A stretch of 64,000 nucleotides of DNA, taken from assembly GCA_951406725.2 (NCBI GenBank), contig OX597824.1:92132001-92196000 (forward strand), given 5' to 3'. Of this stretch, positions 9,433 to 14,007 are shown piece after piece (position 1 is the first letter of the stretch; the number at the start of each line of letters is the position of its first letter). Position numbers and translations under genes: made by a program. This DNA is from Octopus vulgaris (taxonomy: Eukaryota). Below the pieces are notes generated by a model that had not been told where the DNA came from, did not search any database, and was given only the letters and a program-made list of their open reading frames with translations.

Positions 9433-9837
9433 ATGAATAAATAAATAAATGAATACATAAATAAATAATAATCAGGGATTTGGTTTGAGACTTTTGTTGT
9501 ATTATTTCTTGTATTGTGTGTTGTTTGTGCAGTACAGGTTGTGTTCTTCCGTCGGATATCGGCCTTCTAAGTTATATGTTGTGGGCTTTGTTCATTTTGC
9601 TGGGTGTTTGAGGTATGTGTTTATTCCTGTATGTTTTTGGAGGAATGTTGCATAGCAGCTTGTATAAATCAGAATCTACTATTTCATAGTATTTATGGCT
9701 ATCTGTCCACCGTTCTTTCTCTTTTGGTTGTTTTTATTATGGGTCCTGTGTCCTGGGTCCTATTTTACAGTGTTTACTTTTTAAACTGAAAACTGGCCAT
9801 GGACAAGTGTCGATGTTCCTTTCGTATTTATAATTAG

Positions 9838-10147
9838 AGAGAATTAGAAATAATGATATTTCAATTTTTGAAAACCAGTGGATGTATTCCACTGAATTTA
9901 GCTCAGCACCGAAACGTGCTGGGTTCGGCTACTCCACAATGATAAGAGGCAACCACCTCGAAACTAGTCAGTAGTTGCCAGACCAGCAACGGTAAACTGC
10001 TGACCTCCCCTGTTCGAAGGTTATAATGGACACAGTTTTGTGTGTCCAATAGCTAGCTAGAGGCGATGGTCTCTTGTAGCTAATCAACGGCAGCATTCGT
10101 CCTATTTTTCTAGACTGCCATGTTAGCTTGGCAATAACTATTAATAG
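9838..10147 (+). mobile_element. Retrozyme-like ~310-nt repeat unit, copy 1, with degenerate hammerhead (9934-9974)
   Basis: ATGATAA(9939-45)-GAGG caacca CCTC-GAAA-CTAG-TC(9969); colinear with 12361-12640; downstream hairpin GGACACA/TGTGTCC (10028-47). Confidence 0.75.
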
Positions 10148-10863
10148 TAGTTATAATTATTATTGATGTATCAGTAAAAGACTTGGAACAAGCAGTAATG
10201 TACATATATAGAGGTCTTATATAAATATGGATAGATGTATAAGTAATTAAAATTTTAAATTCAAAATTTTACTCACGGGCTTGCAGTTCTCGTAACGAGA
10301 CACTGCTCTCCATGTGTTTACGTTTACACGTACGTGCCGCGAGGGCGGGGCAACTGGCAGAAGCTATTACTTGTTTAAATATTCTTCAAGAAAATTCTTT
10401 TAGTTTTCCCTAGGTGGTTCACATCAAGACACAGTTTCCTTTCATTTTTTTCATTGCTTTTTGTGAATTCTTGTTGTCGTTGTTATTATTTTTCATCATT
10501 CGGTAGTTTCAGGCAAATTTCTACAACATCACCTGTTACACTTCCGTGTAGTTGGGGGTGAGCGCAGCATTGTGTGTTCTTTTTTGTTGATTGTGAAGCG
10601 CAACTTCTCCTCGGTATCGTATTGCGTCACTTTCTTTTTTTATGGAGTGTTGTACTTGTATTTGCATTTTTGCGTTGTGTGTGTAATGCGTTGGTTACCC
10701 AAGCATTTGCAATATGGAGTGTGTTATGTGTTATTAGATTGTTTTGTTTAGGTTGCATGTGGGTTGTTCTTGTTGTTTTTGTTATTATTATTATTATTAT
10801 TATCATCATCATCATCACTATTATTACTATTATCATTATTATTATTATTATTGTTGTTATTAC

Positions 10864-10953
<90 letters not shown>

Positions 10954-11974
10954 CATTATTATCCATACTTTCATCCAATACTAAACTGTATGGAACACAT
11001 TTAGACAATGGGGTCTGCAATGTACCCACGATACAACAGATAACTAAGTCTTAAACACTTCTACCAGTTGTCCGATGCGACAGATTTGTTTCCTTTAATA
11101 AGTTCACTTACTCAGGACAATACTCACTACAAACAATTACATTCTTTTATTAATTCGCCATCTATCAGTGGCTTACCCTTCTGAGACAAGTTTTCCCTAT
11201 AACACAACTAAACATTTGTACATGTACCAGTTTTTTTTTTAATTGTTTTTTGTGAACTAAGCTTCTTCTTCACTTAATCTCTTTTCGTTTTCCTTCTTTC
11301 CCCGTTTAATTCTTTATATTGTGAGCCATGTTTGGCAGCATAGTGACGCTTAATATTATATTCCTGACATACAGCAGTTTCAGCATTACATATGAGGCAG
11401 GTAATATTATTGCATGCTTCAATTACTAAATATTATTCTGTCCATAGGATATTGAATTTTCTCTTTTCTTTCTGTTGTTTTTCTCTTCTTAGTATCGGAT
11501 GCCATGACCAAATAATTGCGCTATTAAAATTAACAATTGAAATTATTACGTAATCACGCCGATGTAAATATTCCAGAAACCAGAAACAAATACAGAATAA
11601 TTAGTCTCTTCCTCACAAAGCGTTAACATCAGACTAAGCCTAGACGAGAAACACCGAAGTCACTATCACTTCACATTGTAAACAAAGTTTGGGAAATAAC
11701 TCAATCAATATTGATCCGACCGCAAAAGATTTGAAGCTGAAACAATGGCTGTTAATTATGTATCAACACAATGGCTGAATCTACGAAGCAGAGTCAGCCA
11801 ATCTACGTCATAAACCCCAAGCCCCCCCTCATTTTACCTCCCTCTATTGAGGTTTTGGTCCGTCCAAAATAACACTGAGTTCAAAATAACTGTGAGTATA
11901 ATTTTCTCATCGTACATGATCAAAGAAAATGAAAATATAACTAGAAAATAACACGTATAATTAGAATTTGAATC

Positions 11975-12038
11975 GCCAGCGGGCCGCATGCAAATATTAA
12001 TTTGAACCCAAATACGGCCAGCGGCTTGGACATCATTG
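11975..12038 (+). mobile_element. Possible hAT (Charlie/Buster-like) right terminus
   Basis: gcgggccgcat...cggccagcggcttggacatcattg resembles the GCGGGCCG subterminal repeats and terminal TTGGACAnnnCTG of hAT ends; no partner end found. Confidence 0.35.
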
Positions 12039-12126
12039 TTCAAGTGAATGTTTCAGAAGAAAATAGGATTCTTTTAAAATATGATATTCCATAGACAGTA
12101 TTTCACGTGGGATATGGCCAGTTCCC

Positions 12127-12233
12127 AATTCAGTTGAATACATCTACAGGTTTTCAGAAATAGAAATATTATTATTTGTAAGACTCTCTAAAGGAGACTA
12201 CGGCAGCAGTTCTGCATATTAATAGTTATCGCT
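12127..12233 (-). repeat. Inverted partial copy of the 314-nt repeat unit
   Basis: Reverse complement matches 12315-12412 (gtaactattaatat..gctgccgtagtctc..ttagaaatat..tttctatt) and 9855-9898 (gaaaaccagtggatgtattccactgaatt). Confidence 0.8.
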
Positions 12234-12236
12234 AAG

Positions 12237-12640
12237 ATAGCTAGAGGCGATGGTCTCTTGGAGCTAATCAACGGCAGCATTCGTCCTATATTTCTGGCCT
12301 GCCATATTAGCCTGCCGGTAACTATTAATATCCAGTACCGCTGCCGTAGTCTCTTTAAGTGAGACTTAGAAATATTGATATTTCTATTTTTTAAAAGCAG
12401 TGGGTGTATTCCAGACTGGTGGATTCGGCAGCTCTGCATTGATAAGTGGCAAATACCCAGAAGCTAGTCTGCAGGTGCCTGAATACTAAGGGGAAGCGGC
12501 TGGCTTCCTCGTTGAATGTTATAATGGACACAGGTTCCTGTGTCACATAGCGAGCTAGAGGCGATGGTCGCTTGGAGCTAAACAACGGCAGCATTCGTCT
12601 AATATTTCTGGACTGCCATATTAGCTTGGCGATAACTATT
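12237..12640 (+). mobile_element. Retrozyme-like repeat, ~1.3 tandem units (period 314 nt), with degenerate hammerhead (12433-12475)
   Basis: gctagaggcgatgg at 12240 and 12554, gccatattag at 12301 and 12615 (both offsets 314). HHR: TCTGCA-TTGATAA-gtgg caaata ccca-GAAG-CTAG-TC-TGCAGG. Confidence 0.75.
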
Positions 12641-12650
12641 ATTATTATTA

Positions 12651-12734
<84 letters not shown>

Positions 12735-13573: not shown

Positions 13574-13692
13574 TACACATATGTATGTATGTCATTATTC
13601 AGTTTATTTCAAGATTTCTTGCCAAAAGAACCGTTTTCTCACCTACTTCCAAGGTTCCTCCATTGGAATTTCAACATGAACAGGCTATTTTT

Positions 13693-13990
13693 GTATGTAT
13701 GTCTGTATGTATTTAATTTTATTAGTATAAAGAGTATGGTTGCTTTCCAAACAATTCTTTTAAATATTATGTTTAAATAAAATATTATATAATTTCGTGT
13801 ATGGGCGTATAAAGTTTTGTTCTTTAAGGAAAACGTATGTATGTATTTCTGTATGTATTTAATTTTACTAGTATAAAGAGTATGGTTGCTTTCTAAACAA
13901 TTCGTTTAAATATTACGTTTAAATAAGATATTATATAATTTCGTGAACGGGCCTATAAAGTTTTGTTCTTTAAGGAAAATGTATGTATGT
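13693..13990. repeat. Tandem duplication, 146-bp unit x2
   Basis: ctgtatgtatttaatttta at 13703 and 13849; the units differ by scattered substitutions. Confidence 0.9.
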
Positions 13991-14007
13991 ATAAATGTAT
14001 GTATGTA

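Follow-up and report, generated by a model that had tools for sequence, protein, structure and literature searches.

The 64,000-nt stretch of Octopus vulgaris DNA analysed here (hereafter, the window; GenBank assembly GCA_951406725.2, contig OX597824.1, positions 92,132,001–92,196,000, forward strand) carries two copies of a non-coding repeat with a hammerhead ribozyme motif, and comparison with the rest of the genome points to a dispersed, retrozyme-like family whose insertions resemble those of Penelope-like elements (PLEs). The two copies (copy 1, 9834–10146; copy 2, 12235–12643) are homologous (75% over 328 alignment columns, E = 2e-61), and each contains one hammerhead in the corresponding position, with cores starting at 9939 and 12439, as an earlier note on this DNA had described. 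Copy 1 belongs to a subfamily designated B (85% identical to the natural B unit L059, with 20 differences from the B column majority at 301 sites), and copy 2 is nearest to subfamily A (30 differences at 250 sites). Copy 2 also has an inverted arm that was absent from the earlier description and that is 92% identical to a natural A unit over 99 nt (Table 1). Natural units are 360–365 nt long with a GC content of 0.41–0.43; relative to them, deletions have removed 47 nt from copy 2 and 23 nt from copy 1. The 314-nt period reported earlier is real as the spacing at which the 3′ part recurs in copy 2, where it is caused by the 47-nt deletion, but it is not the unit length of the family. No PLE coding match was found within the window.

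The two hammerheads are damaged in different places, again as previously noted. That of copy 1 retains a whole stem II and GAAA, with U3 changed to A and stem I broken, and that of copy 2 has a whole stem I, GAAG, and two of four stem II pairs. Both are likely inactive. The consensus of the two copies from which a complete ribozyme had been read mixes subfamilies B and A, whose stems differ by compensatory changes. Both copies are decayed, ordinary insertions that look dead. The (TTA)n run at the 3′ end of copy 2 is its likely insertion target, given the target bias seen throughout the family.

Table 1 Features of the two repeat copies in the window (positions in the window; unit positions refer to the natural full unit).
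Feature	Position	Strand	Details
Copy 1, single subfamily B unit	9834..10146	+	5′-truncated; unit positions 35–361 plus end motif; 23-nt internal deletion
Copy 1 hammerhead	9927..9979	+	core 9939–9945; predicted cut after 9969; palindromic loop CUAG
Copy 2, inverted arm	12127..12233	-	end of one unit plus unit positions 1–99 with tail; joined 5′ to 5′ to the direct arm
Copy 2, partial unit	12235..12321	+	5′-truncated; unit positions about 276–361; 90% to subfamily A over 83 nt
Copy 2, full-phase subfamily A unit	12322..12643	+	47-nt deletion; stops at the first fixed 3′ end
"Tail" segment, 58 nt	12330..12387	+	unit positions about 9–66; closes with a palindromic hairpin; optional 3′ extension in other loci
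Copy 2 hammerhead	12427..12479	+	U3–A8 core 12439–12445; predicted cut after 12469; palindromic loop CUAG
(TTA)n microsatellite at the 3′ end of copy 2	12637..12734	not assigned	likely insertion target

Relatives of the two copies occur throughout this microsatellite-rich, 2.8-Gb genome, which bears out the proposal that they are decayed members of a multi-copy, non-coding family of roughly 350-nt units with one type I hammerhead each. A general ribozyme-core pattern gave 1,520 exact matches genome-wide and 2 in the reversed control. The more specific exact patterns gave 406 (a 23-mer of subfamilies A and B), 581 (CAUG core), 474 (CGCG core) and 538 matches (a 30-mer of the young 3′ end), with 0–2 matches for all reversed controls. 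Among the first 100 general-core matches listed, 96 lay in family members and the other four had no match to the unit. DNA similarity searches returned 2,116 to 2,958 first-look candidates each, the best 40 being scored per search. The copy number may be estimated at a few thousand, dispersed; the copies are scattered over most chromosomes, and no PLE open reading frame (ORF) lies inside the units.

At least seven subfamilies could be distinguished, five of which were measured and stand 3–17% apart; copies within these five differ from their own column majority by medians of 2.7–5.9%. Two further subfamilies, F and G, were recognised, and the copies of G are only 1.5% from the majority (88 segments), which indicates recent activity. 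Family sequences are also present in assembled sequencing-run contigs of two organisms. No report of such a family in octopus or another cephalopod was found in the literature; repeat databases (Repbase/Dfam) and article supplements lay outside this search, and prior cataloguing is possible.

The family motif is a type I hammerhead with the core UUGAYAA, in which U3–A8 replaces C3–G8, and not CUGAnGA. It consists of a 4-bp stem II, GAAA, a four-base loop of the form C-N-N-G, UC, and a 5-bp stem I that is extended into a long rod; stems I–III and the core are present in all subfamilies. In 27 natural copies, 96.9% of cells at the 12 named hammerhead pairs were paired, compared with 21–56% in slid controls. 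Covariation, a check suggested earlier, was found in the hammerhead stems (two-sided change at 4 of the 12 pairs in these copies) and across the whole unit (16 of 71 pairs, RNAalifold), these counts representing a handful of subfamily-level events and not 27 independent ones. Circular folds of seven natural monomers, taken from cut site to cut site, gave z scores of −4.1 to −7.7 relative to 40 shuffles. The fold has thus been kept across successive subfamilies through compensatory changes, which argues for selection on RNA structure.

Loop III was palindromic in 98 of the 100 matches listed (CAUG 52, CGCG 26, CUAG 19 and CCGG 1, by hand count). Each switch between palindromes requires two changes, and the pattern therefore fits a helix III formed between two copies. 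The family hammerhead is predicted to self-cleave after GUC. Rfam gave no hammerhead match in the window, nor in an intact relative or dimer; since the core is a variant one, this is no evidence against the motif, and such families are probably undercounted because Rfam misses it. An old copy at L403:1530-1765 (G000:C1:78534220), 76–80% identical to A/B, combines the fourth possible palindromic loop, CCGG, with a B-type stem I and may mark another subfamily.

Insertion ends were read in two samples, each anchored by a 3′ motif and therefore unbiased with respect to 5′ ends: an old sample (80 distinct loci, taken in order from the first 100 of the 406 A/B matches) and a young sample (59 distinct loci out of the first 100 of the 538 young matches). 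Copies are 5′-truncated with variable 5′ ends and include partial tandems, and an inverted arm is found at the 5′ end of 44/80 old and 33/59 young loci. Most 3′ ends (122 of 140 old and 99 of 106 young arms) sit at one of two fixed sites, close to unit positions 8 and 66. These sites are 58 nt apart, the stretch between them being the counterpart of the PLE "tail", and the tail is present on one arm only in most inverted pairs (28/44 old, 27/35 young). Both fixed ends are downstream of the predicted cut, by about 175 and 233 nt, and so are not set by the ribozyme. A (TA)4+ run was located within 30 nt of 38/56 young and 10/44 old ends, compared with about 6% of control windows. Direct repeats of at least 8 nt flank four of the seven inverted insertions outside TA runs, a small sample, and measure 12–14 nt in the three young ones.

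Read from the sequences, this is the insertion layout described for PLEs in PMC8557442 and PMC3846280. The earlier picture of a tandem-array retrozyme thus holds for the DNA-level features of retrozymes, but the family has spread as dispersed insertions with a full Penelope-like signature. A short 3′ motif (GCAGCATT) shared by subfamilies A and B and some PLE ends was considered as a link to PLEs and rejected, as it is missing from C, D, F and G. In the young loci (L330–L402), 5′ ends are sparse at unit positions 122–190 (7/106 arms) and denser on either side, and this zone overlaps the 5′ strand of the ribozyme rod.

Autonomous PLEs are present in the same genome. Of 6,136 GIY-YIG candidates, 150 were scored, and 30 loci plus 6 longer stretches were compared with the unit. 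The genome holds intact 781-aa ORFs with reverse transcriptase (RT) and GIY-YIG domains and a Cx4CxxC linker; they are probably Neptune-type, a class assigned from the linker motif alone and for which Nematis is also possible. A UUGAUAA...GAAA CAUG motif, which shares the U3–A8 core variant of the family, lies downstream of the ORF in 18 of the 30 GIY-YIG loci, and the tail of the autonomous PLEs is the start of the next unit, the same layout as in the mini-element. One young PLE family (L120:1768-5468) has identical 504-nt pseudo-long terminal repeats (pLTRs) and an upstream 479-aa frame without a Pfam match that overlaps the 781-aa frame; the many intact 781-aa copies suggest that it is currently active. 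Read by eye, the 3′ untranslated regions of other PLE families show further core variants: L103 and L109 have GCAA instead of GAAA and the loop CCGG, and L108 has an apparent A3–U8 pair, also with CCGG. The GIY-YIG match at L105:1500-1650 is not PLE-like and resembles an exon of a host nuclease, which we take to be SLX1-like.

Given these observations, the family is very probably a non-autonomous element mobilised by PLEs, and, if so, a circular intermediate appears likely. The complete reading that we favour, and consider probable overall, is that of a 360–365-nt non-coding element mobilised in trans by the RT and endonuclease of a Neptune-type PLE via an RNA circle made by its own ribozyme. 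A locus with at least two units would first be transcribed. Two hammerheads are then predicted to pair via a palindromic 6-nt helix III and to cut after GUC, releasing a unit-length RNA that a host ligase would close. The insertion ends show that copying begins at either of two fixed internal AT-rich sites 58 nt apart and not at the cut site; these correspond to the pair of internal RT starts by which the PLE tail is defined. The PLE enzyme would nick (TA)n or other AT-rich DNA and copy stretches of differing length, mostly shorter than one unit but occasionally spanning several, in many cases working from both strands of the target and giving 5′-truncated, partial-tandem and head-to-head inverted insertions with 10–14-nt target duplications. 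The last step, retention of the fold in the descendants by compensatory change, is documented above across subfamilies.

Multimers bear directly on the template. The earlier note expected active arrays elsewhere in the genome: loci with at least two intact tandem ribozymes do exist, but the two dimer-query searches (best 40 candidates each) yielded, besides dimers and trimers, nothing longer than a single locus of about 4.5 units (L247), and no long satellite-like array. Neither window locus has two ribozymes in tandem. Forty-eight natural cut-site-to-cut-site monomers were listed, whose cores are not all intact. The units and inverted arm of L247 differ by 0–6 of about 355 and 1–2 of 286 sites, so L247 is essentially one insertion, perhaps with one later local duplication. 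For common alleles, the segments of a locus all agreed in 484 of 515 site–locus tests (294 expected; sites are linked), which fits one template per insertion. A ligated monomer circle would account for multimers that are seamless and homogeneous and for the selection acting on the ribozyme, and about half of the young arms (53/106) cross the cut site. The transcript-like data, assembled contigs of runs guessed to be RNA, comprise many divergent fragments with varied flanks; a contig across the cut site was obtained from two such runs and from a large run of unknown kind, and fits a circle, uncut RNA or DNA equally.

Several points weigh against a ribozyme-made circle copied by a PLE, in addition to the small number of covariation events. 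Two ribozymes in one arm were found in 0/80 old and 5/59 young loci. Allele agreement within loci is barely above chance in old subfamily A, and many within-locus pairs disagree when rarer variants are included (e.g., in G, 99 variants in both and 78 in one only); these rarer disagreements are mostly C>T or G>A changes, which we read as having arisen after insertion. The 30 PLE loci sampled had no nucleotide homology to the unit (best matches 14–24 nt, E = 0.34). PLE ribozymes with U3–A8 and a short helix III are reported to cleave weakly in vitro (PMC4209133), and in the one PLE reconstituted in vitro, ribozyme mutations are described as without effect on insertion, uncut RNA being the main substrate (PMC11167929).

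A less likely but serious alternative keeps the non-autonomous, PLE-mobilised element but has it copied from linear RNA that is never cut, either a tandem transcript or one with terminal redundancy. Multimers would then be restored through homologous jumps between templates, and the ribozyme fold would act in something other than circle formation (RNA processing or protein binding). Such a template explains the DNA equally well and has the precedent just cited, in which insertion is independent of ribozyme cleavage and uses unprocessed RNA (PMC11167929). The terminal redundancy of most loci (partial unit plus tail) would permit seamless jumps. There is also no sharp pile-up of 5′ ends at the cut site (5/140 old arms, at positions 186–202; 7/106 young arms within 5 nt, p = 0.07), and two young arms that start 1–2 nt upstream of it are no more than expected by chance; the missing pile-up led us to reject a linear, already cut monomer as the template. 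However, neither the palindrome in loop III nor the catalytic-core letters have been lost across at least seven subfamilies, of which the five measured differ by up to 17%, and this suggests selection for dimer cleavage. Moreover, if the family can only lose sequence from its 5′ end, some mechanism must restore homogeneous multimers, and circles have been reported for mollusc retrozymes of similar size (PMC7229834).

A further explanation, that the copies are the 3′ ends (pLTRs) of an autonomous PLE whose coding copies fell outside the sample, would account for the PLE-type insertion layout and the ribozyme, and gains some room from the scoring of only the best 40 candidates per DNA search. 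The 5′ sides of the units make it very unlikely. Across 296 distinct loci, the sequence extends to the unit start in 144 segments; 121 of them continue into the preceding unit, and the other 23 border on unique flank, an inverted arm or a small leftover of the preceding unit. The 158 free 5′ flanks of these loci have no coding upstream sequence in common; only five pairs share adjacent sequence, and none of those loci has a PLE protein match. The unit was the 3′ end of its own RT–GIY-YIG ORF in 0/296 loci, and no autonomous parent was recovered by blastn against the 30 GIY-YIG loci or in tblastn searches of all loci with 8 PLE proteins or fragments. The tail leads straight to the ribozyme half without an ORF, in dimers to 4.5-mers and in several subfamilies.

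PLE coding matches do lie nearby in 14 records, a proximity that we attribute to shared AT-rich targets. Units are joined directly to PLE coding fragments in L021 and L132, and in L351 an endonuclease remnant lies 1,070 nt upstream, all of which could be taken in favour of a coding parent; the L021 and L132 junctions, however, are mid-ORF or antisense, unlike a pLTR layout. In L003 the unit follows a PLE's own 3′ end and a TA run. In L132 (799-1957), a 238-nt inverted repeat (98%) of composite make-up links a 5′ fragment of a PLE ORF with part of the mini-element, possibly a template-switch chimera of helper and parasite RNAs.

Spread as satellite DNA by DNA-level duplication, with the ribozyme a passive relic, has in its favour some dimers with near-identical units that are far from all other loci (L241, L062) and two inner L247 units that look locally duplicated, but it is largely refuted by the insertion signature (dispersal on most chromosomes, fixed 3′ and variable 5′ ends, target duplications, inverted arms), by the compensatory changes, which reflect selection on RNA structure, and by the lack of a long array in the two dimer-query searches, and is highly improbable.

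Among known systems, the closest are the animal non-LTR retrozymes. By every DNA-level test drawn from PMC7229834 and a recent preprint (Li, Clavereau & Pollet 2026, 10.64898/2026.07.22.740005), the octopus family groups with them: it shares the non-coding unit of about 150–450 nt with a GC content below 50% (GC 41–43% here; mussel units are 350–390 nt, Cervera & de la Peña 2020, PMC7229834), one type I hammerhead per unit, a self-paired circular fold, target duplications over 4 bp and a range from monomers to multimers. The one-pair helix III of the octopus motif, with its palindromic tetraloop, is similar to that of the axolotl HHR_Amex1. The octopus family differs in its U3–A8 core and in its arrangement, nearly all loci being dispersed and shorter than two units and the longest about 4.5 units. 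Circle formation through closure by a host ligase is reported for the coral, mussel and axolotl retrozymes. Both PMC7229834 and the 2026 preprint propose PLEs as the mobiliser, the latter arguing from vertebrate co-occurrence and pLTR homology that retrozyme-like elements are non-autonomous PLE derivatives. In the octopus, by contrast, no homologous pLTR was found among the 30 GIY-YIG loci and 6 longer stretches compared, and the link to PLEs comes from insertion anatomy (tail, inverted arm and TA targets).

PLEs themselves offer the next comparison. The account of Cervera & de la Peña (2014, PMC4209133) describes a covariant U3–A8 core in Cercyon PLEs of Schistosoma, a short palindromic helix III, dependence on dimers, low in vitro activity and nearby copies on opposite strands, and it already proposes circles as templates for more-than-unit copies. 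The octopus motif resembles these pLTR hammerheads in its U3–A8 core, short palindromic helix III, predicted dimer activity and nearby opposite-strand copies, whereas its unit spreads without an ORF and differs in its long, extended stem I, its 4-bp stem II and a subfamily succession of its own. With endonuclease-positive (EN+) PLEs (Craig et al. 2021, PMC8557442; Arkhipova et al. 2013, PMC3846280) the family shares 5′ truncation, partial tandems and the inverted 5′-truncated arm, and with those of the same two reports and PMC11167929 also the one-ended optional tail, the (TA)n bias and two internal RT start sites, the stretch between which is the EN+ PLE tail as characterised in vitro (Frangieh et al. 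2024, PMC11167929). The octopus tail is longer (58 nt versus the 30–40 nt given for EN+ PLEs), and its unit has no coding region. MRC1 and other non-autonomous Chlamys PLEs of Chlamydomonas (PMC8557442) are similar in having pLTRs and multicopy head-to-tail insertions, but are described there as mostly lacking canonical hammerheads and as sharing 3′ sequence with autonomous partners, whereas a partner of this kind was not found for the octopus family among the loci sampled.

The octopus family would therefore be an additional case of a known animal retrozyme type, with unusually clear PLE footprints and a palindrome-switching ribozyme. In the published accounts cited here, support for a PLE–retrozyme connection consists of co-occurrence and pLTR homology. 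Here, a purely non-coding unit bears a footprint of the PLE enzyme: copying starts at two internal sites, the tail sits on one side, an arm is inverted and insertions favour TA targets. The subfamilies also form a dated succession that reaches down to about 1.5% divergence, in which compensatory changes arose naturally and three loop palindromes are common, and the family brings two questions into one system, namely the cutting of a U3–A8 dimer ribozyme in vivo and the copying of a circle by a PLE reverse transcriptase. A bolder idea, which we regard as improbable, is that the loop III palindrome is a pairing code through which the ribozyme dimerises with its tandem neighbour and also in trans with other RNAs of the same palindrome, the CAUG ribozyme of the helper PLE included; if so, the switch from CUAG to CAUG to CGCG in successive subfamilies would be the trace of an RNA-level conflict in which a parasitic circular RNA is set against its helper retrotransposon.

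Two other hammerhead repeats were encountered during the searches. The first is an older family of about 345 nt, unrelated in sequence (L297:5775-6200, G000:C4:38178574-38178999, with relatives in L295 and L296), with the core UUGAUAA...GAAA CGCG UC, partial tandems and inverted arms; it returned 2,251 first-look candidates, the best relatives being about 80% identical. The second is an apparently unrelated U3–A8 hammerhead repeat at two loci that are 74% alike (L294:4800-5030 and L298:5860-6085), with a 341-nt internal repeat in L294 and the loops CAUG and CGCG. Elsewhere in the window, positions 13692–14004 contain a 146-nt direct repeat (2.1 copies, 92% alike) in AT-rich surroundings.

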